This document shows positions 1,890-31,468 of a stretch of DNA of 64,000 nucleotides, in pieces. The DNA comes from an uncultured Candidatus Peribacteria bacterium. GTDB taxonomy: Bacteria; Patescibacteriota; Gracilibacteria; Peribacterales; Peribacteraceae. The notes beneath the pieces are model-generated. The model ran no database searches and was not told where the DNA came from. It was given only the letters and a program-made list of their open reading frames with translations. A program made the translations under genes and the position numbers. Each line of letters opens with the position of its first letter. Positions within the stretch are counted from its first letter, which is position 1. The stretch lies in contig CAZHON010000001.1 of the NCBI GenBank assembly GCA_964534565.1, positions 390,532-454,531 on the forward strand, written 5' to 3'.

Positions 1890-1906
1890 AAGAGTCTTCC
1901 TTTTTT
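1880..1906 (+). terminator. Rho-independent terminator overlapping the DUF559 stop codon and abutting the convergent ATPase gene end
   Basis: GGAAGACT(1880-1887)-gaaag-AGTCTTCC(1893-1900) followed by TTTTTT(1901-1906). Confidence 0.75.
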
Positions 1907-4406
1907 ATGCACCAATTCTCCTTAAGATTTCCCTGTTCACGAAGTCCTTCGCACGACCGTACTTCAATCGCGAGAGCTGCTTGTAGGCTTCTGCAGCTTG
2001 ATCATCCTTTGCGTAGGATTTGTCGAGCCATGGGCGAGGAACTTCAATCGTGAATGGTCGGCTTGGCTGACCGTCGATACAGAGTTTCATCGCACCCTTG
2101 AAGGCATCCATGTTCACAAGATCCTGCTCGCTGAAGGTTGGAGCCATTTCTTTGCCACCGACTTCCGCATCCTGAGGACCGATCTTATAGAACATCATGG
2201 AACCGACGTTTCCGAAGATTGCACCCTTCAAACTCACAGCACCTGCAAGCTTGCTGTCCTTCTCCAGCTGATCGATATACTGGTGAGCGAGCACGAGTCC
2301 CAGGCGGTACTTACGCGCTTCGGACAAAATGGATTCAATGGAAGGCGTCACGAAGTTCTGGAATTCATCGATGTAGAGGAAGAAGTCTTTGCGTTCTCCA
2401 GCCGCTTGGCGCTGACGACGCATCGCTGCGACCTGAATCTTGTTCACCATGATCATACCAAGCAGGGTCGAGTTGATGTCTCCGATGAGACCCTTCGACA
2501 GGTTCATGAGGATGATCTTGTTGCTGTTCATACACTCGCCGATGTCGAAGCTGCTCTTCGTTTGACCGACGATGTTGCGGATCAAGGTGTTGGTTACGAA
2601 CTGTCCGAACTTCGCTGCGAAGTAGGGGATCATTTCCTGCTTTTCGCGCTGACCTGTCTTGGCCATCTGGTTTTCCCAGAAGCTGCGAACGATCGGGTTC
2701 TTCACCTTGGCAACCTTGTACTTCTGCCATTCGTCATCGGTGAACAGACGGACCATGTCCGTGATGGCGCCTCCTTCCTCCTGGTCTTCCATGAGCGTAA
2801 GACAACCGTTGCGGAAGTAGTCCTGAATGCGTGGTCCGAAGATTTCTTCACCGAACATTTTCACCATCATGTTCATAGCATCGAGAGCGATGAGGTCACG
2901 TTCTTCCTCCGTTTTTCCTTCCAACATGTTGAGTCCAAGCGGACGCTCCGTATCGGCAGGGTTGAAGTAGATCACATCATCGGCACGTTCGCGTGGAATG
3001 TACGGGATGAGATCTTCAATCAATGATCCGTGTGGATCGACGATGCACATGCCTTTTCCGTTGTGAAAGTCCTGACGAGCCATCAGTTGCAGAATCGAGG
3101 ACTTACCCGTTCCCGTTTGTCCGATGATATAGAAGTGACGGAAGCGGTCATCCGGCTTCATGTAGACCGGCTTCTTTTCGCCACGATAACTGTTGTATCC
3201 AAGGAAGAGTCCTTCCTCTGGAACGTTCTTTGGAGCGGGAGCAATTTTGAAGTTCTGCCACTTGATCATTTCCGCCTTGTTGTAGCGTGTATGAGGAAGA
3301 TGGAAGAAGCTTGCGAGTTCACCGGTACCGAGGAGCAAGCTGTGTCCCTGCAACTTCGTCAGAAGACTCATGCGGGGGAGGCGCTGAATGAATTGGCGGA
3401 TCGTGGCTTTTCGGTTTTCCAACTTTGGTTTCTTGAAATGATTTCCACGAACATCGTTGTACTGTCCAAAACTTGCAAGCACCGTATCCAAAATCATTTG
3501 TGAGCGAGCACTGTTCGTTCCCGAGGCGATCACGCGAATGACGGCGTTGAATCCCGGGTTGCCCGCTTTTTCATCGACGGCCTTGCTGTACTCCTCCACC
3601 ATCTGCGACACGCGATCATGTCCGCCTCCATCTTTATGATCAGTGAGATCACTTGGAGAAGACAGAAGAGAGAACAATGCTTGCAGCCAGGAAAGGGGAT
3701 TGAACAACGAGGCGCTGTGGTGTTTCTTTGCGGGGTTCAAAAGATCGGCTGCCTCCTTCTGCAGTTTCGTCTGCCAACCCGGTTTTGCTGGACTGAGAAT
3801 GTACTGAATTGCGGCACCTTCGTCTTTATTGAGCTTGGAGAACGCGTTTGTTACTCCATTGAGCGGATCGCTCTTCAATTGCTGGTAGGTGCGGAAGACG
3901 GACGTGAAGGGCTTGTGCGCGACAATCGTCTGCGCAGTCACAACGGAGTGCGGTGTGAAGATGTTGTAATCTTCCACTTCATCCATCACCAGTTCCGGGT
4001 AGAACGATGTGAATTGTTTTTCGACCAAGTGTGCAATGGAGCGAGGGCACACGACGAAGAAGAGAATCTCGCCGGCAAGTGCCGCGTACTCTACGGAGAA
4101 GAACGGTTGTCCGTGGAAGACGCCGCTCATGTGTTCGTCGTAGATGCTGTGGAGGGACGCGAACAAGTGATCCATCACACCGATCACTTCTTTGAAATCT
4201 TTTCCGAACTGATCACTCTCCACTTCTTTCTCTTCACGCGACTCTTTCTTCTGAACGAGGATCTGTAAGAATACCAAATCCTCCGTGCGATGACGTTCGG
4301 CACTGCGTCGTGACCAGAGAACGTACAGTCCCGCGAGACCGACGGTCAGACAGAGCCAAAGGAAGATCGAAACGAGAGGCATGATGAAATCGTACCATTG
4401 TACCAC
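1905..4406 (-). CDS. TraD/VirD4-family (T4SS coupling-protein-like) membrane P-loop ATPase, paralogue 1
   Basis: 833 aa. N-terminal TM 'PLVSIFLWLCLTVGLAGLYVLW'; Walker A 'IIGQTGTGKSS'; 'VDPHGSLIEDL'; Walker B 'FFLYIDEFQNF'; 'LVLAHQYIDQL'. Alignable over its full length with the ORF at 35091-37700. Confidence 0.75.
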   Translation of the reverse strand: MVQWYDFIMPLVSIFLWLCLTVGLAGLYVLWSRRSAERHRTEDLVFLQILVQKKESREEKEVESDQFGKDFKEVIGVMDHLFASLHSIYDEHMSGVFHGQPFFSVEYAALAGEILFFVVCPRSIAHLVEKQFTSFYPELVMDEVEDYNIFTPHSVVTAQTIVAHKPFTSVFRTYQQLKSDPLNGVTNAFSKLNKDEGAAIQYILSPAKPGWQTKLQKEAADLLNPAKKHHSASLFNPLSWLQALFSLLSSPSDLTDHKDGGGHDRVSQMVEEYSKAVDEKAGNPGFNAVIRVIASGTNSARSQMILDTVLASFGQYNDVRGNHFKKPKLENRKATIRQFIQRLPRMSLLTKLQGHSLLLGTGELASFFHLPHTRYNKAEMIKWQNFKIAPAPKNVPEEGLFLGYNSYRGEKKPVYMKPDDRFRHFYIIGQTGTGKSSILQLMARQDFHNGKGMCIVDPHGSLIEDLIPYIPRERADDVIYFNPADTERPLGLNMLEGKTEEERDLIALDAMNMMVKMFGEEIFGPRIQDYFRNGCLTLMEDQEEGGAITDMVRLFTDDEWQKYKVAKVKNPIVRSFWENQMAKTGQREKQEMIPYFAAKFGQFVTNTLIRNIVGQTKSSFDIGECMNSNKIILMNLSKGLIGDINSTLLGMIMVNKIQVAAMRRQRQAAGERKDFFLYIDEFQNFVTPSIESILSEARKYRLGLVLAHQYIDQLEKDSKLAGAVSLKGAIFGNVGSMMFYKIGPQDAEVGGKEMAPTFSEQDLVNMDAFKGAMKLCIDGQPSRPFTIEVPRPWLDKSYAKDDQAAEAYKQLSRLKYGRAKDFVNREILRRIGA

Positions 4407-13609: not shown

Positions 13610-15118
13610 TTAGTTTGTAGGCGCCGGTCGAACGACGATCGGGCTTTCGAGTGTGCAGCGTGCGCAGTGCAGTTCCCACACCTTCAGCAGGTTTCGCTCT
13701 TTCACCTGTGCGTCGGCCAACGGCTCGTAGTAGGCGAGAGGGCGATAGGATTGGAATGCAAGGAACACGATTGCCGCCATGATGACGAGCGCATACGTCT
13801 TGCGGGCTTCCGTTAAAACGAATGAACCGATGCGATCGATCTCGAGGAAGAAGAGTCCCACCAAAATGCACGCGAACGAGAGGGGCAAGAAGTAGTGGTA
13901 CAAATACATCACACGAGTGATCTGTGAAACGGCGATGAAGAAACACACGTACAGCATGAAGAACGTCAACAGAGCAGTCGGTTCTTTCAACGGCGTTCCT
14001 CCGCGCAGAATTTGTGCAGCTGCAAGCCCTCCACACAGCACCACAGCAAACAGTGCAAACAACCACGTTGCAGGGTTCGATTGCAATGTGAGATAGCGGT
14101 AGTAGCCGCCTCCGTCCGTTGCCCAGCGATAGTTGATCGTTCGACCGCCGACGGGCCACAGGAACCATGGGCTTCCGTTCTCGTCTGCTTTGCAAAGGTC
14201 GAGGCGGGGCACTCCTTGTTGGTAGTGACCGACGAAGTGAATCGAGTCACGAATCATCGTCGGGAACGAGAGGAGCGATGTGTTGCGGTGCTCAGACAAG
14301 ATTGTTTTGTACTGCTCTGATGCCTGGTAGTACCCGTTGTCGGGCAATGCCGGGTTGATGTTCGAACCGAGGGCAAAGTGAATCTGCCAAATGGTGACGT
14401 ATGGAATGAGGAAGAATACCAAACTGAGCGTAAGGAACAGAAGTGTCTTCAGCGGATTGGGCCACAGGTAGACGAAGATTGCTGGAAGCAGCAGAACCAA
14501 AATCAATGCGAATGCCTTCGTCGCAAGGGCACACCCGAATCCGAATCCGAACAGAACAGCCGCCCATACGAACACGCTGTTCTTCAGGGGCTTCGTGCGA
14601 AGCAGTAACACACCGATAATCGAGAGCAGAGAGAAGAAGAGCATCGTCGTCTCCAACATTGCGCCGCGTCCGTGGACAATTTGTGCGGTGTCAAAAATGT
14701 AGAGAGACGACAGCAGCATCGCCCACACGGGTTTTTTCGTCACCAAAAAGAAGATCCAGAAAAACAGTCCCGCTGTCAGCCATCCAAGGAGAGCGGGGAA
14801 CAGGCGATACCCCGTGAAGGAAAATCCGTCTGGAGGATTCTGTGCGTAGTCCGTGTTGATGAATTGATTGTCGATCGCATTTGCATTCACGATTTTTTCA
14901 CCGAGAGCGATGAGGAGCTTTCCGAGGGGAGGGTGCGGTTCCATGAAGTACACCCCGTTTAAATATTTCTGTGCACTTGCAACGTGATAGTTTTCGTCCC
15001 AAAAGAACGCTTGTGGGTTCTGATAATTGTAGAAGTACGTCCAAAACGACGTGACCAGCACGAGGGCCAGACAGATTTCGAGTGGATAGCGTTTCAGCCA
15101 GGCGACAGTTTGTTGCAT
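13610..15118 (-). CDS. GT39 (PMT-type) phospholipid-carrier-dependent protein mannosyltransferase-like enzyme
   Basis: 'FFWDENYHVASAQKYLNGVYFMEPHPPLGKLLIALGE' (loop-1 DE motif plus HPPLGK); multiple TM helices. Confidence 0.8.
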   Translation of the reverse strand: MQQTVAWLKRYPLEICLALVLVTSFWTYFYNYQNPQAFFWDENYHVASAQKYLNGVYFMEPHPPLGKLLIALGEKIVNANAIDNQFINTDYAQNPPDGFSFTGYRLFPALLGWLTAGLFFWIFFLVTKKPVWAMLLSSLYIFDTAQIVHGRGAMLETTMLFFSLLSIIGVLLLRTKPLKNSVFVWAAVLFGFGFGCALATKAFALILVLLLPAIFVYLWPNPLKTLLFLTLSLVFFLIPYVTIWQIHFALGSNINPALPDNGYYQASEQYKTILSEHRNTSLLSFPTMIRDSIHFVGHYQQGVPRLDLCKADENGSPWFLWPVGGRTINYRWATDGGGYYRYLTLQSNPATWLFALFAVVLCGGLAAAQILRGGTPLKEPTALLTFFMLYVCFFIAVSQITRVMYLYHYFLPLSFACILVGLFFLEIDRIGSFVLTEARKTYALVIMAAIVFLAFQSYRPLAYYEPLADAQVKERNLLKVWELHCARCTLESPIVVRPAPTN

Positions 15119-15223: not shown

Positions 15224-16603
15224 ATGGGATTGTCACTCTTTGATTTTCAGCACGGGCTAGCGCTTCCTCCTCTTGGGTCGGCAACGGCGGTTCTTGCGGC
15301 TGTGCTCCTGCTTGCAGCGCTCGACATTTCTCAGCGACTGCACCACAAAACGACCCATCTTATTTTTGCGTGCGTTGTGGGAACGGTGCTCTCCGTCATT
15401 CTCCTCAAAGTGGGAGATGTCGTCACGTTGCCGGGCTGGAAAGAGAATGCCTACCTCATGGCGCTCCTTGTGGTGTGTCTGTGGATCAGTTGGAAAGCGC
15501 TCTTCGGTCCATGGGACGAACAGACGAAGGCAGCCATGCTCGGGACCTTCCTCTTCTGGATCGCGCTTCGCATCATCATGCGCGACGACCCTGCCGAACG
15601 AACGGCGCGGTTGATCGCGAGTGTGACGGCACTCATTCCCGCCTGCATTTGGTGTCGTCTCTTCCTGGAGTATCACCGTGAACGTCTGACGCGCGTTCTC
15701 CTCATGTTCTTCGCGGGCATGCTCTCGACGGCGCCTGTTCTCTTCTACGACGCTCTCGTTACACGCAACATCGAATTGCAATTCTTCCTGTTCCGCATCG
15801 TGCCGGAAAGCTTCCATGAGTACTCTCAGGGATTTGTCGCTTCGGCGCTTCATGCTGCGGAAAACAGCAATAAGGTCGTGTTGGTCAGCTTGATCTCGTT
15901 CGTGCTCGTCGGAGTGTTGGAAGAGATCAGCAAGTTCTGGGTTCTCAAGCGAAGTTGTCAGGATCTCGCATCGAGCATCGATGATGTGATGGAGCTTTCC
16001 ATCATTGTCGCGATCGGTTTTGCATTTGCAGAAAACATCATCAACCCAACGTACTTCACGGGGTTCGTACAACAGTACCTGCTGTTACCGGAGTCTCCCG
16101 ACATTCTTGGATTCCTCAGCAATGTGCTGGGCCGTTCGGTGCTCACCACGATGGTGCACGTCGTCTCGACGGGAATCCTTGGCTACTTCCTGGGACTCGC
16201 GATGTTCGCAGGCCCCGTTCTTGCAGAACAGAAAGCGGCGGGACGCTTCTCGATGATTGTCGCCTCGGTCCATCGTTTGCTTGGACTTTCGGAGACATCG
16301 GTCTTCCGCACACAAATGCTCACGACAGGAATTGTCGTTGCGATTTGCTGCCACGGGCTCTTCAACTTCCTGGTGACGCTCCCCGACATTCTTCCGAATA
16401 ATCCAAAGACGATTGCCGATATTTTGGGAGTGCAGTCCTATGGGCTGCAGTACATTCCATTCTTGCTCATTCCTGCATTGACGTACGTGGTGGGGGGATT
16501 CTGGCTTTTGACATCGTTATTTGCCCGCAAAGAGGCAATGAAGGAACGCGGGTGTATCGTCAAACAGGAGGTCTTTGTAGACCCGGAAACGCAACGCTCA
16601 TAA
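15224..16603 (+). CDS. PrsW-family intramembrane metalloprotease-like protein
   Basis: ATG at 15224 (the upstream part of ORF 14984 overlaps the GT39 gene). Motifs 'LEEISKFWVLK', 'GFAFAENIINP', 'TMVHVVSTGILGYFLG'. Confidence 0.7.
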   Translation: MGLSLFDFQHGLALPPLGSATAVLAAVLLLAALDISQRLHHKTTHLIFACVVGTVLSVILLKVGDVVTLPGWKENAYLMALLVVCLWISWKALFGPWDEQTKAAMLGTFLFWIALRIIMRDDPAERTARLIASVTALIPACIWCRLFLEYHRERLTRVLLMFFAGMLSTAPVLFYDALVTRNIELQFFLFRIVPESFHEYSQGFVASALHAAENSNKVVLVSLISFVLVGVLEEISKFWVLKRSCQDLASSIDDVMELSIIVAIGFAFAENIINPTYFTGFVQQYLLLPESPDILGFLSNVLGRSVLTTMVHVVSTGILGYFLGLAMFAGPVLAEQKAAGRFSMIVASVHRLLGLSETSVFRTQMLTTGIVVAICCHGLFNFLVTLPDILPNNPKTIADILGVQSYGLQYIPFLLIPALTYVVGGFWLLTSLFARKEAMKERGCIVKQEVFVDPETQRS

Positions 16604-16604
16604 C

Positions 16605-16633
16605 TTGAGAAAAAGGCGTTTTTAGGCTATAAT
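16605..16633 (+). promoter_or_regulatory. Near-consensus sigma-70 promoter of the 82-aa/1597-aa operon
   Basis: TTGAGA (16605-16610), 17-nt spacer, TATAAT (16628-16633). Confidence 0.6.
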
Positions 16634-16635
16634 TA

Positions 16636-16655
16636 GGGGAATATTCCAATTCCCC
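16636..16655 (+). promoter_or_regulatory. Perfect 7-bp inverted repeat abutting the start codon (operator or 5' hairpin)
   Basis: GGGGAAT(16636-16642)-attcca-ATTCCCC(16649-16655); ATG at 16656. Confidence 0.5.
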
Positions 16656-16904
16656 ATGGTTTCATTTTCTACACCTTCGGAGTCCCTGGAATCACAGCGT
16701 GACGAGGTGATCGATGGCCTGCGTTTAGACTCTCGTAGTCGTTTTGGAAAAGCGGTCGGTGGCGTTGTGAAATTCGGAATGGACGGAGCGGATCTAGGAA
16801 TCCAAGTGACTGCCTATGCTGGAGGACGTGTCGTGAATTCGGCAGTAGGTGGTGTTCAAAAACTCTACCGAGGTATTACAAATAAATCCTTCTCGAACAA
16901 TTAA
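16656..16904 (+). CDS. Small Gly-rich hypothetical protein, first gene of the giant-protein operon
   Basis: 82 aa, directly behind the promoter and palindrome, 15 nt upstream of the 1597-aa ORF. No family recognised. Confidence 0.5.
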   Translation: MVSFSTPSESLESQRDEVIDGLRLDSRSRFGKAVGGVVKFGMDGADLGIQVTAYAGGRVVNSAVGGVQKLYRGITNKSFSNN

Positions 16905-16919
16905 TCCTTCTTCTTTTTT

Positions 16920-19900
16920 ATGCCAACACCAGAAACAAACAACGAACAAAAGAAGCAGGCAACTCCCGAAGTCGCACCAAAAATCCAAACGTTGGATGCC
17001 CTTCGTAAGAGTATTGAGGATCAGCAGAAGACAACGCCTGAAAAAAAGATGGAAGAGATCGTTGCCGATAAGTTGAAGGGGCTGGACGAAGCAAGTCGTG
17101 ACTTGATTCATGACGAAACGAAGGCACTTGAAAAGAAGGATGGAGTGCTCGCGGAGAAATCGATTGAGAAAGAGCTCCTCAAGCAGTTGAATGCTGAGAA
17201 ATTGAATGCAGTGAAAAAGCAATTTGAAGACAGTACAAAGAAGCCCGTCGACGCCGAGAAGAAAGGCATGCTCGATCGTGCGGTCACGTCTTTCCAGGAA
17301 GCAACGAAAGGATACATCCCACAAACAACCGATATGTCCAAGTGGACCGACAAAGAAAAAGTAACAATGGCAACGGTCACATTGGGAATCGCAAGCCTCG
17401 CAGCACTTTGGTATTTCAACCGAAAGGGCGACAAATCAGAAGGGGCAGCAGCAGAAGAGAAAGCTGAAAAGAAGAGTGGCTGGAAGAAACTGTTATGGAT
17501 TCCGGTGATTGGTGCTGCACTCTACTACTTCAAGGACTCAGCACTGTTGTCCGGTATTCAAAACAAACTGAAGGGATGGTTCGGAATGGGGAAAGAGAAG
17601 ATCAAAGAAAAAGCAAAAGATGCGAAGGACGCTGCGAAAGATTTGATCAACGGAAAAGGAGAAGAGTATGGGATTTCGAATGAGGCATATGAAGACGCCG
17701 AGAATCAGTACAGAACTCACGGTCTGAACGCGAAAGATAAGATTGCTTCTATTTTTGGTTTGAAACCCGGAGAAACGAATCCGCAGTTTGAAAAATTCAT
17801 GGAGAAAATGAAAAAGCATGATGCAGAAACTTCTGAAGGTATCAATCGCGTTCCGGCGTCCGTTGCTCTTCGTAACTACGAAAGTCAGTTACAAGACGCC
17901 TTAACAGAGATGGAGAGTTGGGCTGAGGGTCATATATTCGAAATCGGAGTAGCAACCCTTCTTGCTGCTCGATTAGGAATTTTGCAAGCAGTTTTAAGAG
18001 GTGCAGGAACCGTTATTTCTAAATCAGCTCAAATTGGAAAGTTAATGCTTCAATGGGGAATTAAGCATCCGTTTAAATCTTTGTTCTTAGCAGGAGGTGC
18101 ATTCATCGCTTTGAAAGGAATTAAAGACAATGTCTCTTTGCCTGAAAACTTACAGCAATTTTCCAAGGCATGTAAAAACAATCAACCAATTGCAAAGGGA
18201 TCTGCTGATCAATATCAGCAAGCATCGCTCATTTCTCTCAAGGGACATATTGAGGCGTTAGGTGAAATTGGAGATGAATGGGGTCCTTGGATTGGTCAGC
18301 AGTTAGAAAATATATTAGGAGAAGTAGGCAATCAATTGCCCGACATTGTTGGACTTACGCCAGAGGAATTGATTCAAAAAAATAATGCAGAAGGTATTGA
18401 TCAATTGCGCAAAGCATTAACAATGGGAATTGAATCAGTTCGAAGAGATACTGAAAAACGCGACAACGGAGACGGAAAAAAATTCGAGAAGGCAATGGAA
18501 TTACTTGATGCATTTGAAATTGCATTCGTGAATGCACGATGCATCGAACCACCTGACAAAGATGAATCAGATGCAGTATTTGCTGAGCTCACAAAGGCAC
18601 TGGAAGAAGTCGGTATTTCAGTTACTGTGAAAGATGGAATCGTAAAATGGGGAACTGCTTTAGGTGAATGGGATCTTTGTATTGATCCTTCGATTAAAGA
18701 TAAAAATGAGCAGAAAAAATTATCTGAAAAAATCCGTGAGAAAGGAGAAAGTTTTGCCACGCATCTTTTATTTAATGCCATTGATCAAGCACGGGAACGC
18801 CAGCAGCAAGGCATGGAAAAGATCCCCGGCAACAGAGCGCTTGCAATGATTATTGGAAACCTCGTTTATATTGTTGAGGATTGGGATATAAAAGAAGCGG
18901 GAGCAAAAACAATAAATTATATTTGTGTCCCTCTGAATCTTTTTACAGACGCAGTGGGGATTGGTCCTGTAGTCGGAAATGATATGGATAAATCAAACAA
19001 TGCCGTTGAATGGGGTACAAATCTCACAACCGGTTTTTTGACAAGTGCTCTCTTTACGATTAATGCCGCGTGGCTTGCTGCGGCAAAACGTCTTGCTATT
19101 GGTGGAGGACCTCTCCACGCAGGGTGGAAGATGCGTGTTGCAATGAATGTTATTCCAGGATTCTCCCAATACACATTCCTTCGCAGTGCTTACGAAGGAG
19201 CGCAAGATTTCAAAATGATTCAAAAATTCGGACCTTTGTGGGGACGACGTTTGAATAATGCCTTAGCCGCAGCTCACATTCGTCCAGAATGGATTGCACT
19301 CGTAGAAACAGGAACAGAAGCTCAGGTTCTAGATGTTGCTAATAAGTCAGGTGCAAAACTAAGTTTGAATGCAGACTTGCCAACAAAACGTGCGCAATTG
19401 AGAAAGTTCCTTCAGGATTCCATGAAGGTTACAGAAAAACGTTTAGCGGATTTCAAGACATATAAAATCTGGAAATGGGGTAAGGCATGGAGAGGTGGAG
19501 AGATTGCATACCAAAAGGAACTGTATGACATGGTTCTGGCTCACTATGGAAATGCGAAAGAAATTTTAAAGGGAAATGTATTCACAATTAAAGATCTTCA
19601 AAAAGCAGGAATGACAGTGGCAAAATTCTTAAAAGATGGAGTTCCAGTAGATGATTTGTTGAAAGCGGGGATTTCATTAGATGATCTCGTCAAAGCAGGT
19701 GCCAAGATCGATGATCTCCTCAAAGCAGGGAAAACACTTCAAGAAATCATTGCTTCCGGTGCCGGCATTGATGATCTCCTTCGTGCAGGTGTAAAGGAAG
19801 CAGACCTCCTCGCTGCCGGTAAAACTCCGGAAGAAATTGCCAAGGCAATGAAGTCGGTGAAAACCAAAGTCGACGTTGCAAAGACTGTCGATGCCGGAGT

Positions 19901-21713
19901 TGATGTTGCAAAGAATCTCGACGAAGTCGAACGACTGCTTGCAAAAGCAGAAGAGCTTAGAAAGGCGGGAAATCTCGTTGAGGCTGAGAAATTGGCCGCA
20001 CAAGCACACGAAGCTGCAGAGGGAACGCATCGTTCCATTCAGGCCGCACGTGCAGGCGGAAAGGTCGTCGCTCCCGGCGAAATCTCTCGTTTCGGAAAAT
20101 GTGTGAAGGGTTTGAAGGTACTGGCAAAGGCATTCGGATGGGCGCTCAGTCTTGTCGATGTCTACTTTGCATGGGACTACCTCTACAACGAACGCCCTGC
20201 GTTGATGGCGCAGATGGAGCGCGAAACCGACAAGTCAAAGAAAGATCTCATCGAAAGACGTATCACATCGAAAGACGTTGCAACCGGAGTGGATATCGTC
20301 GGTGCGGGGTTGTCAGTCAGTCCACTGTGGCCGGCCGGGTTGATTATCATGGTTGGAAATGCAGGCTACAAGCATTCGATCGGTGCAGTGCACGATGCGG
20401 AGGAGTATCTCACGCAAACGGAAAGCGATTTCAAGAAAATGCCATCAGGCAGAATTTTGAATAGCGTCAGTACGACAACGGCATTGACCGGCCGCAGCTG
20501 GACGAGTGACAAGCTTTTCCAGCTGTACGGGGGTAAACAGGAAATCTTGAACGGAAACACTGCCATTCGCAGTATTGGCTATAGAGGTTACTTCTACCAG
20601 TATGCCGGTGAGAATCTTCCTGTCGCCGTTCCCCAGGATCTGTCAGACGATTTGAAATCCAATCCTGATATTAAAAATCTCCTGAAAAATTTCAACGATT
20701 CACAACGTGCGTATTTCATGACTCTGGCGACTTGCTACATCAGTGAAGTGACGAAGGGCCAATACACACTCGTCACTCCAGAAGTTCTTGAACGAGCAAC
20801 ACGCTATGCATCCGGCATTTGTGCCGAACATCGTCGAGCAATTGCAGCCGGCCGCATTGAGAATGGGGAATTGATTCCTGTTGGATTGAATTATCCATAC
20901 CAGACACTCCCTGTAAATTCCGGGGGAGGTCATGGGGACCTCGTCCGCGACATCGATGCAAAAACACACGAGCAATCCAATAGAGATTGGTCTGTCACGA
21001 AGACGCGATTGGAGATGTTGCAAACGGAACCTGAATTGTTCCAGGCAGAATTCGTCTATCGCATGGTCAATCGAGTTCGCCATAACATTTCCTTGGCTGA
21101 CCAAGCCGCACTGAAGTTAGAAGGAGCCTCTGCGACCAACGCGCGTTATGGTTACGCGAAGGCAGTGAGTGAAACACTGCAGCGTGAACTGAATGCATCC
21201 AAAACAACGCCGTTGACCCAAAGTGATTTCGATCGAATCGTGTCCACGTTGCAGGGAATTCTTAGTGAAAGTGCACAGGTGGTCGCCGAACGTGTTGAAG
21301 GCAGCGTCAATGAAAATGATGCCTATACAATTCGCCGAATCGGAGGCAATGATCTTTTGCTCAGCAGCATGGGAATCTACGAATTCATGAAAAATATTCA
21401 GCCCGAAAAGAGCGAGCAGATGTCTGTGAATGAAAAGAGACAGAAACTCGGGGAGCAGTATCTCCATGGTCTCAATGTGAATGACAATGGCAGCTATTTC
21501 ACGAAGCAATATGGCTTTGTTGGGAACAAATTCATGTACATTCAGTTTGATGAGGCCGCTGGAAAATGGATGGCGCAGTTGGGCGGAAGGGACGCGATGA
21601 AAGATCCTTCCACTTGGCATGTCACAAACTGGGGATGGATTCCTGGTGCAGGAGGAGCAGACAAATATAACGACCTCTTGAGGAATTTGGATGCAATCAA
21701 TAAGAAATCCTAA
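16920..21713 (+). CDS. Giant (1597 aa) multi-pass membrane/surface protein of unknown function
   Basis: K/E-rich coiled-coil-like N-terminus. Hydrophobic segments 'VTLGIASLAALWYF', 'LLWIPVIGAALYYF', 'IGVATLLAARLGILQAVL', 'LTTGFLTSALFTINAAWLAAA', 'FGWALSLVDVYFAWDYL', 'LWPAGLIIMVGNAGY'. Decapeptide repeat block. No recognisable catalytic motif. Confidence 0.8.
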   Translation: MPTPETNNEQKKQATPEVAPKIQTLDALRKSIEDQQKTTPEKKMEEIVADKLKGLDEASRDLIHDETKALEKKDGVLAEKSIEKELLKQLNAEKLNAVKKQFEDSTKKPVDAEKKGMLDRAVTSFQEATKGYIPQTTDMSKWTDKEKVTMATVTLGIASLAALWYFNRKGDKSEGAAAEEKAEKKSGWKKLLWIPVIGAALYYFKDSALLSGIQNKLKGWFGMGKEKIKEKAKDAKDAAKDLINGKGEEYGISNEAYEDAENQYRTHGLNAKDKIASIFGLKPGETNPQFEKFMEKMKKHDAETSEGINRVPASVALRNYESQLQDALTEMESWAEGHIFEIGVATLLAARLGILQAVLRGAGTVISKSAQIGKLMLQWGIKHPFKSLFLAGGAFIALKGIKDNVSLPENLQQFSKACKNNQPIAKGSADQYQQASLISLKGHIEALGEIGDEWGPWIGQQLENILGEVGNQLPDIVGLTPEELIQKNNAEGIDQLRKALTMGIESVRRDTEKRDNGDGKKFEKAMELLDAFEIAFVNARCIEPPDKDESDAVFAELTKALEEVGISVTVKDGIVKWGTALGEWDLCIDPSIKDKNEQKKLSEKIREKGESFATHLLFNAIDQARERQQQGMEKIPGNRALAMIIGNLVYIVEDWDIKEAGAKTINYICVPLNLFTDAVGIGPVVGNDMDKSNNAVEWGTNLTTGFLTSALFTINAAWLAAAKRLAIGGGPLHAGWKMRVAMNVIPGFSQYTFLRSAYEGAQDFKMIQKFGPLWGRRLNNALAAAHIRPEWIALVETGTEAQVLDVANKSGAKLSLNADLPTKRAQLRKFLQDSMKVTEKRLADFKTYKIWKWGKAWRGGEIAYQKELYDMVLAHYGNAKEILKGNVFTIKDLQKAGMTVAKFLKDGVPVDDLLKAGISLDDLVKAGAKIDDLLKAGKTLQEIIASGAGIDDLLRAGVKEADLLAAGKTPEEIAKAMKSVKTKVDVAKTVDAGVDVAKNLDEVERLLAKAEELRKAGNLVEAEKLAAQAHEAAEGTHRSIQAARAGGKVVAPGEISRFGKCVKGLKVLAKAFGWALSLVDVYFAWDYLYNERPALMAQMERETDKSKKDLIERRITSKDVATGVDIVGAGLSVSPLWPAGLIIMVGNAGYKHSIGAVHDAEEYLTQTESDFKKMPSGRILNSVSTTTALTGRSWTSDKLFQLYGGKQEILNGNTAIRSIGYRGYFYQYAGENLPVAVPQDLSDDLKSNPDIKNLLKNFNDSQRAYFMTLATCYISEVTKGQYTLVTPEVLERATRYASGICAEHRRAIAAGRIENGELIPVGLNYPYQTLPVNSGGGHGDLVRDIDAKTHEQSNRDWSVTKTRLEMLQTEPELFQAEFVYRMVNRVRHNISLADQAALKLEGASATNARYGYAKAVSETLQRELNASKTTPLTQSDFDRIVSTLQGILSESAQVVAERVEGSVNENDAYTIRRIGGNDLLLSSMGIYEFMKNIQPEKSEQMSVNEKRQKLGEQYLHGLNVNDNGSYFTKQYGFVGNKFMYIQFDEAAGKWMAQLGGRDAMKDPSTWHVTNWGWIPGAGGADKYNDLLRNLDAINKKS
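19587..19850 (+). repeat. About 8-9 tandem 10-codon repeats, consensus xxxDDLLKAG, inside the giant ORF
   Basis: 'IKDLQKAG MTVAKFLKDG VPVDDLLKAG ISLDDLVKAG AKIDDLLKAG KTLQEIIASG AGIDDLLRAG VKEADLLAAG KTPEEIAKAM'. Confidence 0.9.
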
Positions 21714-21808
21714 TCACCCTGACCACTATTAGGAACTTCGTCTACGTCCTCCTCGTGACTCAGTTGCGGGGAGGCGTAGAATAGATGGGTATTTTTTGAC
21801 CCATCTTC

Positions 21809-23404
21809 ATGTTTTCCACTTCGTCATTTCGTTCATTTGCCGTCAGCGCCGTTTGTGTGCTGACACTTGCTCCCGTCTCTGCTTTTGCAGCGCAAGAAGA
21901 GGGGATCACGCGCGGAGCGTTCCTTCAAGGTGCAGTCAGTGCGTTCGACATCATGTCGACGGAAGGAAAGTTGCCGTACAAGCGTGTTCCCGCAGGCATT
22001 CGTCCTGCGGTACAGGCCGCGTATGACGAAGGAGCAATGGGGGCGTTCAAAGAGAAGGAAGTGCAGTTTGGCCGCACAATCACTCGTGGAGAAGCAGCGT
22101 ACGTCATCGCCGCTCTTTCCCTCACACCTGCCCCAAGCGACAACATCAAAACATTCACCGATGTGAAAGAGGGGAGTGACATGTCGAAGGCGGTGAATAT
22201 CGTGCTGCAGAAAAACTGGATGCGTGCACTGCGTCCGAAGTTATTCGGAGTGAATCAACCGCTCACCACATCGGAAGCGACTCTTCTCTTCAAGCGTATT
22301 CGTCAAAGTCGCGGAATCGATTCCTCCACACCGACCGTTAAAATTCGTTTGAACCCCAAGACCAGTACGGGAACGGTCCAGAACCAAGTCCTTGATGCGG
22401 TTTGGAATTTGATGAATCGAGAGTACCTCTACAAGGATCGTCTCAAGGATTCCAAGGAGAACTTCCCCGCAACCGATGCTCTCGTGAAGAGCGTAAAAGA
22501 CCCCTACACCGTGTACATGCCTCCATCGGAAGCGAAGCAGTTCCACGATCAAATCCAGGGTGAAGTGACGGGAATCGGCGTGCAAGTGGAAGCAAACGAA
22601 GCGGGACTTCTTATTATGGCGCCTCTCCCGGGCTCTCCTGCAGAAGGAGCCGGCTTGAAGGCGGGAGACATCATCACCCAGGTGAACGATGACTCCTTGA
22701 AAGGAGTGTCCTACCAAGATGCCGTCATGAAAGTCCGCGGGCCCAAAGGTTCGACGGTGAAGCTCCGCGTGCTTCGCAATGGAAATGAGATGCTGTTCAC
22801 GGTCACGCGCGACACGGTGAAGGTTCCCGAGATTTCTCTCACCATGACCGACCGCAACGTTGCGATTTTGAAGGTGAGTCAGTTCGGAGATGCGACAGAC
22901 AAGCAGATTCGTGCAAAGTTGCAGGAAGCGAAGGATAAATCCCCCAAGGGAGTGATCATCGATCTTCGCAACAACCCGGGTGGACTCCTCCATGCTGCAG
23001 ATGAAATGGTCAGCGCGTTCGTCCCCAACGGCTCTGTGGTGGCAAATATTCACACACGAGAAAGCGCGTACACCGAGGTCACCACCGAAGAACCGATCTT
23101 CGATTCCCTCACTCCTCTCTACATTCTGGTGAACAAGGGGTCCGCCAGCGCCTCCGAAATCGTGGCCGGAGCACTCCAAGATTACAAGCGTGCGACGCTG
23201 ATCGGGACGACGACATTCGGAAAAGGAACGGTCCAGCAAGTCATCGAATTCAAGGATGGTTCCAGTCTTAAAATGACGATTGCTGAGTGGAAAACGCCTC
23301 AGGATCGCAAAATTGACGGCATTGGAGTCATTCCGGACACGCCGGTCGACAGTACGAATAATCCCGATGCCGCCCTGCAGCGAGCGCTGGATCTGCTGCA
23401 CTAG
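21809..23404 (+). CDS. S41 carboxy-terminal processing peptidase with N-terminal SLH-like modules and a PDZ domain
   Basis: Signal peptide 'FAVSAVCVLTLAPVSAFA'; SLH-like 'FTDVKEGSDMSKAVNIVLQKNWM'; PDZ 'GSPAEGAGLKAGDIITQVND'; 'IIDLRNNPGGLL', 'LVNKGSASASEIVAGALQD'. Confidence 0.9.
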   Translation: MFSTSSFRSFAVSAVCVLTLAPVSAFAAQEEGITRGAFLQGAVSAFDIMSTEGKLPYKRVPAGIRPAVQAAYDEGAMGAFKEKEVQFGRTITRGEAAYVIAALSLTPAPSDNIKTFTDVKEGSDMSKAVNIVLQKNWMRALRPKLFGVNQPLTTSEATLLFKRIRQSRGIDSSTPTVKIRLNPKTSTGTVQNQVLDAVWNLMNREYLYKDRLKDSKENFPATDALVKSVKDPYTVYMPPSEAKQFHDQIQGEVTGIGVQVEANEAGLLIMAPLPGSPAEGAGLKAGDIITQVNDDSLKGVSYQDAVMKVRGPKGSTVKLRVLRNGNEMLFTVTRDTVKVPEISLTMTDRNVAILKVSQFGDATDKQIRAKLQEAKDKSPKGVIIDLRNNPGGLLHAADEMVSAFVPNGSVVANIHTRESAYTEVTTEEPIFDSLTPLYILVNKGSASASEIVAGALQDYKRATLIGTTTFGKGTVQQVIEFKDGSSLKMTIAEWKTPQDRKIDGIGVIPDTPVDSTNNPDAALQRALDLLH

Positions 23405-28166: not shown

Positions 28167-30512
28167 TCAGGCCTTTGGAGGCGTATTTGCGTCTCCTTGA
28201 GGCCCAATATTATCGGCGCGGATGAACGCAACGGGCTTATCGTCGACAATGGGAGGAACGGGATTCTGCGGTAGGACAGGCGCTTCCTTCACCGGTGTTG
28301 CAGGCGCAGGAGCTGCAGGCGTCTCAGCAGCGGGCTTGGGAGTTGGCGTTGGTGTCGGTGTCTGCGTTGGAGAAACCGGAGCAGAGGAAGGAGCTGGATT
28401 CGTTGGACTTGCGACAGGAGCAACGGCAGGTGCAGGTGTTGGTTCCACGGTTGGTGCTGCCGGCGTAATTTTTGCAGGTGCTGGAGATGGAGCTGCTACT
28501 GGTGCGCTTGGCTGAGTAGGAGTTGCAGCAGTCGGCGCTTTTGATTCTGCAACTACGGGAGCGGGAGCGATGGGCGTTGCAGCTGGTGTTGGGGTCGGAG
28601 TGCTTTGGACTGGTGCTGCAGGAGCAGACACAATCGGAGCCGCAGCGGCAGGCTTTGGCTCAACTGTTGGAGAGGGACTGACCTTCAGCCAGGACGGTGT
28701 GCTCGAAGCGGCAACAGGGCCCGGAGTAGTTGTCTTCAGCCAGGAAGGAGTGCTTGGGGAAGCAGGCTTTGGTGCAGGTGCTGGAGCAGCGGCAGGCTCA
28801 GGTGCGGCAGGGGTCGGAGCAGGAGCTGGTGCAGGCGTCTGTGGCTTTGGCGGAGTGACCGGCACAGGTGCGGGCTGAGGAACTGGCGTAGGTTTTGCCG
28901 CAACAACAGGAGCTGCCGTCACGGGTGTTGGTGCAGGAGTCGGTTTGGGAGCCGGTGCCGTTGGCTTCGGAGCAGGCGTGGAGAGATCGGGCTTGCCCTG
29001 CAATCCTTGCTTGAGCCAGCTCGGAGCATTCTCTGCCTGAATTGTTGGAGTCGGAGAAGGGACCGTCGTGGTTTGTTTTTCTTCACGCTCTGCAACGGCT
29101 GCAGGAGGTGTTTGTCGAACGACCGGTGCAGCAGCAACCACCGTTGGTGTCACCACTTGTGGTTTTTGCACCAACTTCGCCTCCATTTGCTCAAAGTGTT
29201 TCTGCAACGATGAGCTTTGTTCCGTGCCGCCGGCGCGACGACGGATGCGAGAGAGGAGGAAGACCAAGATCAAGCCTGCAACAATGCATCCCAAGAAAAT
29301 CAAAATGTATCCAATGTAATTTCCGCTCATGAGACCGATGATTTTGTCGGCGATGGCGCTTGTTCCTGCAACCGTACTTGATGCAGCTGAAGAGGCCGAG
29401 GCGACACTCGCGCCAGAGGAGACTGCCCCGGAACCAGTGATGGGAAGATCGTCCGTGACCGTAAGATCTTTGGTCGCTTCATCGATGATCTTTCCAGATG
29501 CCAGATCCTTGACGGTCAAATGAACTGTGAAGGTGCTGCCCGATCCGAATGTGTGACTGGGTTGAGTCGTCAGACTTGTTTCACCGTCGCCGAAATCCCA
29601 CTGATAGAGAAGAGAAGTATCGGGTTCTGCATTCTTTTGAAAGACACTCTTGAATTGATAGGAACGATTTCCCAAGGCGGCAGCTTCGATGGAAAGGACA
29701 CCCTGGAGCGTTCCTTCCTGCTTCGCCGTATTGAACGATGTCACGGTAAACGGTTGTCGGGCGGGAGATCCGTCCGGAAGAACCATCGACACGCGCATGG
29801 ATTTCTTCGTGATCTCGTTTGCAAACCACAAGACGAGCGGATTGCCGTCTGTCTTGAAGAGTGTTCCGTCGTTATCAATATCGTCGTCGGCAATTCCGTT
29901 GCCGTTCGTGTCGAGAGCAGTATCTGTATCGAGCATGATTCCATGCAGTCCCGCCTTGTTCAGACGAAGAACGATCGTATTCTGCCCGTTATCCAAAATT
30001 GCATTGCCGTTCTCATCGAGAGACGGAGTGGTGTGGATGATCGATCCCGACCCGACCGTTCCTTCATTCAACTCCACATCCCCTGGCATACGTGCCTCCA
30101 CCGCGATCGTGAACACCTTTCGAATGCGTGTCAGTTTGTCGCCGGAAGTGATTTCTGTCGTGAGCGTGTAGTTGCCCGGCGTGATGGGACGAGTTTCAAA
30201 GACGGCCGTGCGGTCAGCCTGAAGGAAGTGGCGATCTTTCGTCAAAATCCAGGCGTACGTTGCGTCCTTCAATGTGGTCACCGGCAAGAACCCGATGATT
30301 TCACCAACCTGAATGGTGATCAGGTCCGGGTCGCTGATTGCAGAGGAGACGCTGAACGAAGATGCACTGCTGACGGAACTGACGGTGTCGGTTGTCGGCA
30401 CATCGGGAAGTCCGGCCGAGATTTCTGCCTCCTCTGCGAAGATATGTCCCGATGTTCCCGCCAAGAGAGACAGGATCAAAAGACCGCAGAGAGGGGTGAG
30501 AAATTTCTTCAT
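28167..30512 (-). CDS. Surface protein: signal peptide, beta-rich ectodomain with a PKD-like domain, one TM, long Pro/Ala/Thr-rich tail
   Basis: 'MKKFLTPLCGLLILSLLAGTSG'; PKD-like 'YQWDFGDGETSLTTQPSHTFGSGSTFTVHLTVKD'; TM 'YIGYILIFLGCIVAGLILVFLLS' followed by 'RIRRR'; approximately 360-aa P/A/T tail with three 'PSWLK' motifs. Confidence 0.8.
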   Translation of the reverse strand: MKKFLTPLCGLLILSLLAGTSGHIFAEEAEISAGLPDVPTTDTVSSVSSASSFSVSSAISDPDLITIQVGEIIGFLPVTTLKDATYAWILTKDRHFLQADRTAVFETRPITPGNYTLTTEITSGDKLTRIRKVFTIAVEARMPGDVELNEGTVGSGSIIHTTPSLDENGNAILDNGQNTIVLRLNKAGLHGIMLDTDTALDTNGNGIADDDIDNDGTLFKTDGNPLVLWFANEITKKSMRVSMVLPDGSPARQPFTVTSFNTAKQEGTLQGVLSIEAAALGNRSYQFKSVFQKNAEPDTSLLYQWDFGDGETSLTTQPSHTFGSGSTFTVHLTVKDLASGKIIDEATKDLTVTDDLPITGSGAVSSGASVASASSAASSTVAGTSAIADKIIGLMSGNYIGYILIFLGCIVAGLILVFLLSRIRRRAGGTEQSSSLQKHFEQMEAKLVQKPQVVTPTVVAAAPVVRQTPPAAVAEREEKQTTTVPSPTPTIQAENAPSWLKQGLQGKPDLSTPAPKPTAPAPKPTPAPTPVTAAPVVAAKPTPVPQPAPVPVTPPKPQTPAPAPAPTPAAPEPAAAPAPAPKPASPSTPSWLKTTTPGPVAASSTPSWLKVSPSPTVEPKPAAAAPIVSAPAAPVQSTPTPTPAATPIAPAPVVAESKAPTAATPTQPSAPVAAPSPAPAKITPAAPTVEPTPAPAVAPVASPTNPAPSSAPVSPTQTPTPTPTPKPAAETPAAPAPATPVKEAPVLPQNPVPPIVDDKPVAFIRADNIGPQGDANTPPKA

Positions 30513-31468
30513 ACGTTCGTATTAATGGAAGAACCCAAATTCAAGAAGAACGACACAATCACGCGAGCGAAGACAATGACGAGCAATCCGAGAATTGTAT
30601 AGAGGATGATGTTCTTTGCGCGCTCACGAGAACTCTCGCTTCCAAACCCAACGATCAGGATGATACCTGCGACAATGATGGCAACGACTGCAAACAGTGC
30701 GAGGAAGCCGATCGCGATATCGAGAAGATTGAGGATCGTGGACGTGAAGGTGTTGATTCCGTTCGAGACGTTGATCGCACCTCCACCAAAACCGATCAAT
30801 CCCAAGTTGCACTGTACGGCGCCGCCCGTTCCCGATCCTCCGGAGATATTCGAGACGAATCCAACAATCACCGCTGCGAATGAAATAACAAGAATACCGG
30901 CGATTGTGTAGAGAATGATTCTCTTCGCCGTGTCCTTTGCGCTTTCGCTTCCAAATCCAAGGAGAAGGAAGAAGCCGGCAATGATGATGGCGACCGTTCC
31001 GATCAATGCGACGTATCCCAATGCTGCAATCACAATGCTGCAGATGATATCTGGCAACGTAACGTCGATGGTTCCACGACTGAGACCCATGAATAGTCGA
31101 ACGATTGCTCGTGCGAGGTTGATGATGATGAGACCGACGAGAGTGTAGATGATAATGCGTTTCGCGCGGTCCTTTGCTCCTTCATCTCCAAATCCAAGGA
31201 GAAGGAAGAAGCCTGCGATCACAATTGCGAGCACTGCGAGAATGTTTGCGATGTTCACGAGCGCATTTGTGAGCGACACGATGTAGGTGAAAAGATCTGT
31301 CTGACCTCCACCCAAAAGTTCTCGTTCCGCTTTGCTCAAACCTTCCTGAAACGATCCACCTTGATAGACGGATGCTTCAACAGGAACAGCGTAGGTCATA
31401 CACCAAGCGGCAGTGCATCCAAGGATCACTGCGACAAACACGGAGAGGAGGTGAGAGGATCTCGGCAT
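30509..31468 (-). CDS. Signal-peptide protein built of three tandem VirB2/TrbC-like (T4SS pilin-like) helix-loop-helix modules
   Basis: Three copies of the hydrophobic helix-'GFG(D/S)E(G/S)xK/R(D/E)xAKxII(I/L)YT'-hydrophobic helix module. ATGA overlap with the downstream PKD gene. Confidence 0.6.
   Translation of the reverse strand: MPRSSHLLSVFVAVILGCTAAWCMTYAVPVEASVYQGGSFQEGLSKAERELLGGGQTDLFTYIVSLTNALVNIANILAVLAIVIAGFFLLLGFGDEGAKDRAKRIIIYTLVGLIIINLARAIVRLFMGLSRGTIDVTLPDIICSIVIAALGYVALIGTVAIIIAGFFLLLGFGSESAKDTAKRIILYTIAGILVISFAAVIVGFVSNISGGSGTGGAVQCNLGLIGFGGGAINVSNGINTFTSTILNLLDIAIGFLALFAVVAIIVAGIILIVGFGSESSRERAKNIILYTILGLLVIVFARVIVSFFLNLGSSINTNV
30554..31246 (-). repeat. Three intragenic tandem pilin-like coding modules
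   Basis: Modules 1 and 2 retain an identical 26-nt stretch (30951-30976 = 31188-31213). Module 3 is more diverged. Confidence 0.8.

Follow-up and report, generated by a model that had tools for sequence, protein, structure and literature searches.

A putative two-protein module of a giant, fast-diverging protein and a small glycine-rich partner in Peribacteria

The stretch of 64,000 nucleotides analysed here (the window) from the genome of an uncultured Candidatus Peribacteria bacterium carries two adjacent genes for a small protein, P0002, and a giant protein, P0001. The open reading frame (ORF) of P0002 (82 aa) is located at 16656-16904 and that of P0001 (1597 aa) at 16920-21713. Both are on the + strand and separated by 15 nt. 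A preliminary description of the window had named this pair, and both ORFs were confirmed. Both genes are real; for the P0001 type this follows from hundreds of homologues with uninterrupted frames of more than 1100 codons. The unit had been described as beginning at 16605. No ORF starts there: at this position, a promoter-like site begins with its −35 hexamer (TTGAGA, 17 nt, TATAAT; 16605..16633, + strand). This site matches 11 of 12 sigma-70-like consensus positions, a consensus match only, and is the top promoter match within 16300-22100. It precedes P0002, and no promoter-like or terminator-like site lies between P0002 and P0001, in agreement with the common promoter that had been suggested. 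A terminator-like hairpin 3' of the giant gene (21783..21806, + strand), with an 8-bp stem and then a T-rich tail, is also a consensus match only. Another hairpin with a 7-bp stem and a 6-nt loop abuts the ATG of P0002 (16636..16655, + strand; RNA fold −10.9 kcal/mol). It is weak (z = −1.69; 13 of 200 shuffles fold equally well), and an Rfam scan of the locus, including this hairpin, yielded no match.

P0001 is the longest ORF within the window, as had been noticed. It is not the longest within the genome (1.096 Mb, five contigs, 99% complete), which has ORFs of 1850, 1659 and 1647 aa. The largest one (1850 aa, G000:C3:50852-56404) has a K/E-rich N-terminus like P0001 and was missed by all hidden Markov models (HMMs) of the family described below. 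The GC content is 0.42-0.475 within the giant gene versus about 0.51 around it, with 0.42 over positions 18001-20000. The gene has a strong purine skew, G over C and A over T. GC drop and skew are compatible with the coding of a K/E/A-rich protein or with the origin as a foreign cassette.

P0001 is predicted to be a mostly soluble, nearly all-alpha giant that is tethered by hairpins. All parts are given with their coordinates on the + strand. The N-terminal tail, residues 1-147 (16920..17360), starts with MPTPETNNEQKK, is K/E-rich by composition as first described, and lacks a signal peptide. Hydrophobic hairpin 1, residues 148-209 (17361..17546), was defined by an alignment of 24 members and consists of a first transmembrane (TM) helix, TM1, a basic loop and TM2 with a W-I-P-x-x-G motif. 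A charged N-terminal tail precedes this hairpin in P0001 and all 23 aligned relatives (24/24). The loop is K/R-rich throughout, with about 6 K/R versus 2 D/E per about 23 aa. An all-alpha N-module follows, residues 210-880 (17547..19559), with 28-39% identity to about 20 relatives. Its AlphaFold2 model consists mostly of helices (pLDDT 65, pTM 0.49). The decapeptide repeat block of the preliminary description was placed at residues 884-973 (19569..19838) by Pfam PF25296 and a register alignment; it has about nine units of LKAGxxxDDL. A helical linker, residues 974-1060, leads to the family core, residues 1061-1310 (20100..20849). This core was recognised by profile matches, comprises hairpin 2 (1061-1085 and 1126-1144) and then a helical domain, and is the most widely conserved part of the giant. 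Variable helices, residues 1311-1505, are followed by an optional beta-rich C-terminal domain of about 89 aa, residues 1506-1595 (21435..21704), which was identified by alignment and has the motif W-G-x-x-G-A-G-G-A-x-K-Y-N. The AlphaFold2 model of the C-part has a pLDDT of 76.8 and a pTM of 0.61.

The earlier view of a multi-pass protein with at least six hydrophobic segments was overstated. A Kyte-Doolittle plot has seven hydrophobic peaks in P0001. On a Hessa-type insertion scale, one to three segments are TM-like: only 148-166 (TM1) clearly so, with 1.3 kcal/mol, while 702-720 (3.0) and 1126-1144 (4.7) are marginal. On the same scale, the proteins of the neighbouring protein-O-mannosyltransferase (PMT) and PrsW genes have many segments between −1.6 and 2. 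The second helix of hairpin 2 is TM-like in homologues (dG 0.7-3). Across the family, only the two hairpins are kept.

No catalytic or domain signature had been recognised by eye, and the library and fold searches found none either. Pfam, NCBIfam, PHROGs and PADLOC revealed no known domain in P0001 beyond the decapeptide repeat and no match for P0002. The same scans of the congener's proteins and of the 'third' genes introduced below gave nothing. Pfam PF25296 covers residues 883-947 with 43.8 bits (E 2.4e-11) at a gathering cut-off of 45 bits. The NCBIfam model for DotG/IcmE (NF033900) matches residues 879-1011 only, with 48.7 bits versus a cut-off of 750 bits. A sequence search of the PDB yielded only IcmE repeat matches (7muc, residues 640-735). 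Clear homology to a characterised family did not appear, and the match to DotG/IcmE is confined to the repeat block. The block is not a tandem repeat at the DNA level. It is optional, being present in 5 of 24 and 2 of 27 family members (7 of 51 scanned), and a Pfam scan of these 51 proteins detected no other domain. TrbI/VirB10 and TrbL/VirB6 Pfam domains were absent from P0001 at E <= 1. Searches of the literature on DotG decapeptide repeats and on Peribacteria with type IV secretion yielded nothing useful.

The AlphaFold2 models were compared with known structures by Foldseek. Against the PDB, the best E-values were 0.35 for the N-module and 1.1 for the C-part, so no similar fold was found; the C-part reached 0.15 against the viral structures of BFVD. 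The top matches had TM-scores below 0.2. Two profiles searched against PDB sequences returned noise only, namely an SMC5 coil with E 0.01 and the delivery region of a large clostridial toxin with E 0.9, and both were taken as chance matches. Since neither half resembles a solved or a viral predicted fold, the structure of the giant would probably be a new fold.

The giant had been called an orphan. A word-indexed search in 5.8 billion proteins found the query itself only, and a search for related loci with P0001 as query found none. Relatives were recovered by six-frame searches with the single P0001 sequence, which detected uninterrupted frames of 1100-1850 aa in 51 of 200 genomes of the order, the best 39% identical. 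A profile of residues 130-1310 was then run against 1.84 billion representative proteins. It retrieved 260 relatives at E <= 0.001, mostly 1100-2200 aa long, of which 159 reached E <= 1e-30. About 45 match the whole profile. In about 200, the match is limited to positions 700-1110, equivalent to P0001 residues 1040-1310; P0001 itself matches profile positions 1-1110. According to the C-part profile, which scores the window's giant at 3.9e-160, members are present in at least 91 of 200 Peribacterales genomes and 51 of 84 genera, with one to four copies each. Outside the home family, 6 of about 255 genomes of the class had matches, one of them strong. The orphan status is thereby withdrawn. As far as these searches reach, P0001 belongs to an undescribed, very fast-changing family that is nearly confined to ultra-small groundwater Peribacteria.

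The N-termini come in two alternative 'heads'. Many giants have a motif of approximately E-[HKR]-R-L-[LIV]-[FYC] at residues 10-25 (P0005, P0007, P0009, P0010, P0022, P0026, P0037, P0048 and others; loci L047, L048, L051-L053 and L057-L060). Other giants, including P0001, start with a T/P-rich tag (M-x-TPTP...).

The giant is accompanied by a dedicated small partner. P0002 had been described as Gly-rich, and 12 of its 82 residues are Gly. A G/A-rich ORF of 64-117 aa is located directly upstream of the giant in 16 of 24 giant genes examined, with gaps of −13 to +85 nt. Because of this position in most loci, small and giant genes form a conserved pair, as the proposal of a two-gene unit had implied. 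P0002 aligns with the small ORFs upstream of the giant at 16 related loci. What the partner ORFs have in common is a polar N-terminus together with a V-E-R-x-Q-like stretch and a C-terminal half that is G/A-rich and ends with G-L-x-x-K-P/S. An HMM of the partners from 16 loci, with P0002 itself included, has P0002 as its only match in the genome (E 2.5e-23). An independent BLAST comparison of P0002 with the partner in genome G012 yielded 1.2e-4. For the small protein, a profile searched against 5.8 billion proteins matched only eight clusters, all of unnamed Peribacteria proteins. The partner diverges as fast as the giant, with 59% versus 60% identity in the closest congeneric pair. In other genomes, the pair is frequently preceded by a third gene. 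Its product of 300-490 aa combines a charged N-terminus with a hairpin, an A/P-rich linker and a beta-rich C-terminal part; neither tblastn nor an HMM search detected this gene in the genome of the window. In genome G013 (L015:10901-11392), a HicA/HicB-like toxin-antitoxin pair (74 and 86 aa, assigned by eye) is located directly upstream of the partner ORF.

The pair changes much faster than its surroundings. The identities of 60% for the giant and 59% for the small protein in the closest congeneric pair compare with 93-99% for the neighbours. In more distant congeners, giants are 31-37% identical versus 72-89% for the neighbours. The gene was neither disrupted nor simply absent in close relatives; in the same-genus genome G001, a highly divergent mosaic member occupies the same slot. 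The flanks are conserved there (ProRS-like 85%, PMT 64%, PrsW 68%, S41 57%, S21 77%). The slot between prsW and S41 (L067:8172-14773; G001:C1) holds a 714-aa ORF and a 1484-aa ORF, head-to-tail with a 2-nt gap, and lacks a small Gly-rich ORF. The 714-aa protein has a charged N-terminus, a TM hairpin and a K/D/E-rich stretch. The 1484-aa protein has no BLAST similarity to P0001, yet it is matched by the C-part profile with 4.5e-48. Over its last 600 residues it has 28-34% identity to other members of the family; its first 800 residues match nothing in the assembled family set. Judged from these comparisons, this is a mosaic, cassette-like replacement within a family of open frames of more than 1100 codons. 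Proteins under diversifying pressure typically show such a pattern.

The position of the module in the genome is not fixed. It is located between the hibernation factor gene (HPF) and proS in many genera, and here between prsW and the gene of an S41 peptidase. In this genome, HPF and proS are about 1 kb apart (G000:C2:167145-169802), and the site is 'empty' of the module. The only ORF there codes for 342 aa (C2:167460-168488), is K/E-rich and of low complexity, and has a very weak similarity to one relative's third gene, with an E of 0.026 from a tiny search. This ORF may be a remnant.

The C-terminal domain always ends 2-6 residues before the C-terminus of its carrier. Its carriers are mostly family members, and it was found in 15 of 200 genomes with about one occurrence in each. 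A use as general secretion tag was considered and rejected: the domain is too rare for a general export signal, with about one protein per genome in 15 of 200 genomes. In this genome, a 577-aa protein (G000:C1:367302-369035; L021:7303-9036), encoded about 23 kb upstream of the window start, has two copies of the domain and no Pfam match. It also carries a nearly identical N-terminal tag, MATPTPEINNKNEK in comparison to MPTPETNNEQKK of the giant, which within the genome is common to these two proteins only. The 577-aa protein thus shares both ends with the giant and none of its membrane core.

Cells of the candidate phyla radiation (CPR)/Patescibacteria depend on other organisms, and the molecules of that contact are largely undefined. 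The module is a concrete two-protein unit with about 260 representatives, essentially all from Peribacteria, and comprises two hairpins, a core and optional end modules. In its evolution it is similar to surface or interaction proteins, with fast divergence, module exchange, variation in copy number and relocation. A role in the interaction with a host or partner, as proposed in the preliminary description, would fit the extreme divergence and the cassette replacement. In the reading favoured here, which is tentative and held with less than firm belief, the giant would be an envelope or contact protein anchored by its hairpins, the small protein would be a subunit that evolves along with it, and the pair would be under diversifying pressure. 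The hairpins would anchor the giant in the cytoplasmic membrane. The basic character of the hairpin 1 loop suggests a loop-in topology, in which this loop would face the cytoplasm. TM2 could act as an internal signal-anchor, by which the helical domains behind it would be exported to the cell envelope. P0002 would be a stoichiometric subunit or an assembly factor in co-evolution with the giant. The pattern of divergence points to exposure to a partner that itself changes, and the exposed parts may be under diversifying pressure from it, possibly a host cell or a phage. The giant would then be an envelope or contact structure, neither an enzyme nor a transporter.

Several observations weigh against an anchored envelope protein. 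P0001 has no signal peptide, and the charged N-tail of 147 aa would have to stay inside or be exported leaderless. The predicted topology was derived solely by the positive-inside rule and from a simple scale of hydrophobicity, and several marginal hydrophobic helices may be buried helices of a soluble bundle. The giant has no adhesion-type domain (PKD, Ig, integrin or similar), a low Cys content (7 in 1597 aa, 0.4%) and no cell-wall anchor motif. Fast evolution alone is no proof of surface exposure.

Giant membrane or surface proteins of related CPR lineages have a proposed role in host contact (PMC8080830, PMC4736985). Those of the episymbiotic Vampirococcus lugosii carry adhesion-type domains (PMC8080830), and the domains reported for published CPR giants are PKD, integrin, DUF11 and WD40 (PMC8080830, PMC4736985). 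Large exported proteins of Ca. Peribacter have signal peptides and are Cys-rich, with about 7% (PMC4736985). P0001 and its relatives share with these giants the very large size, the restriction to a lineage, the reduced CPR genome, the variability among strains or species and the proposed surface role. They differ by the lack of a signal peptide, adhesion domains and a high Cys content, and by an all-alpha, hairpin-anchored architecture with a dedicated small partner. Among the giant proteins of CPR bacteria, the P0001 family is a separate kind that had not been described.

The lack of a signal peptide can also be explained by a leaderless export. The giant could be a secreted cargo or translocon that leaves the cell, for example, by the relaxase-less machinery of this genome that is like a type IV secretion system (T4SS), and then becomes inserted in a membrane of the host cell; the small protein would serve as its chaperone or targeting factor. 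The hairpins would be buried and the giant soluble until insertion, comparable to transmembrane effectors, Inc proteins and alpha-helical pore-formers. In favour of this, the hydrophobicity of the hairpins is no more than marginal, like that of conditionally inserting proteins, and the small partner is located upstream, like secretion chaperones. The window encodes two ATPases that resemble the type IV coupling protein (T4CP) VirD4 and a T4SS-pilin polyprotein, the repeat block is of the DotG/IcmE type, and the otherwise unrelated 577-aa protein shares the N-terminal tag and the C-terminal domain. However, in other genera the module is located between HPF and ProRS, and the surroundings contain no secretion genes. 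The C-terminal domain with its presence in only 15 of 200 genomes is no general export tag, the decapeptide block is optional, and matches to the delivery regions of colicins and large toxins are at noise level (E ~1). Secretion as cargo or translocon is considered unlikely.

Pairs of a chaperone or targeting factor and a large substrate are known from LXG toxins with Lap proteins in the type VIIb secretion system and from translocators with class II chaperones in type III secretion. Bilobed hydrophobic hairpins are a feature of T4SS transmembrane effectors and of chlamydial Inc proteins. By description, the module resembles such pairs in the upstream small helper, the paired moderately hydrophobic helices, the lack of a signal peptide, the modular ends and the fast evolution. 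It differs in having no sequence or fold similarity to them, no linked secretion genes in relatives and no immunity gene; P0002 is Gly-rich and neither of the TPR nor of the helical-hairpin chaperone type. Taken a step further, the pair would comprise a cargo or translocon that has a chaperone, inserts conditionally, is exported possibly by the relaxase-less T4SS-like machinery, is planted in the host membrane and forms a contact or conduit, with cassette swapping as host-range adaptation. This more specific scenario is quite improbable. If true, it would provide the contact or conduit that auxotrophic, ultra-small Peribacteria need.

A location of the giant entirely on the inner side of the membrane is another unlikely explanation, on a par with secreted cargo. 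It would be a cytoplasm-facing membrane scaffold for the cytoskeleton or for division and shape, in concept like EzrA or the HMW proteins of Mycoplasma. The N-terminus would be inside, the hairpins would dip in and out, and the large helical domains would all be cytoplasmic. The missing signal peptide agrees with this. The TM helices are even in number and paired, which would put the N-terminus and all large domains on one side. Helical and coiled regions rich in K/E are scaffold-like, and the SMC5 coiled-coil fragment (E 0.01) was the top PDB match of the profile. The basic loop of hairpin 1 argues in the opposite direction, for a loop-in topology. Housekeeping scaffolds are normally conserved and syntenic, whereas the giant gene is missing from about half of the genomes, has up to four copies in others, shifts its position and diverges much faster than its neighbours. 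A cytoplasmic housekeeping function would make the giant a lineage-specific scaffold of less interest.

The modular, swappable C-terminus, the small partner gene, the fast evolution and the cassette replacement are also traits of a polymorphic toxin-like protein. The conserved part would be a delivery region, the C-terminal module would vary, and the small gene would code for an LXG/Lap-like helper or an immunity protein. This is very unlikely: none of 51 members scanned had an LXG, PT-TG, RHS or toxin domain, and no conserved immunity gene follows downstream, where genes of conserved housekeeping types are located. Whatever the C-terminal module, the small gene comes from a single family and is located upstream, and the C-terminal domain is small, beta and not enzymatic in appearance.

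A structural component of a T4SS was the least credible candidate. P0001 and DotG/IcmE, the core protein of the Legionella type IVB system, have 10-residue repeats of the same consensus type in common, and both are large and membrane-anchored, which for P0001 is a prediction. P0001 differs by the lack of the VirB10/TrbI C-terminal domain, by a repeat that is optional in the family, by the missing dot/icm-like linkage and by the unrelated rest of the protein. The polytopic T4SS channel proteins VirB6/TrbL (PF04610) are characterised by at least five strong TM helices versus one to three TM-like segments in P0001, which has no match to this Pfam family. An analogue of DotG/IcmE/VirB10 or a VirB6-like protein, suggested by the repeat and by T4SS-like genes elsewhere in the window, is largely refuted because the defining C-terminal domain is absent, and the match is confined to repeats that score far below the NCBIfam cut-off and below Pfam gathering and that most family members lack, with no linkage to T4SS genes in relatives and no fold match to solved T4SS (Dot/Icm, VirB) structures.

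The T4SS-like genes of the window are scattered among housekeeping genes and are unlinked to the giant family in other genera. The two T4CP/VirD4-like ATPases are paralogues with long N-terminal extensions (1905-4406, − strand; 35091-37700, + strand). The T4SS-pilin polyprotein has three modules (30509-31468, − strand).

The genes downstream of the giant in relatives are conserved and code for PD-(D/E)XK-like and PAP2/DUF212-like proteins, with 72-99% identity within the genus. The window gene downstream of the giant codes for an S41 peptidase. A functional link of the giant to the flanking PrsW, S41 or PMT was considered and rejected, as these flanks accompany the giant only within the genus. 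The PMT is a homologue of GT39 protein-O-mannosyltransferases (13610-15118, − strand), is located two genes upstream and is also present in the congener. T/P-rich sequences of the kind found in the P0001 tag (residues 1-20) are the type that such mannosyltransferases modify in exported proteins. It is pure speculation that the GT39 enzyme might modify the T/P-rich tag of the giant.

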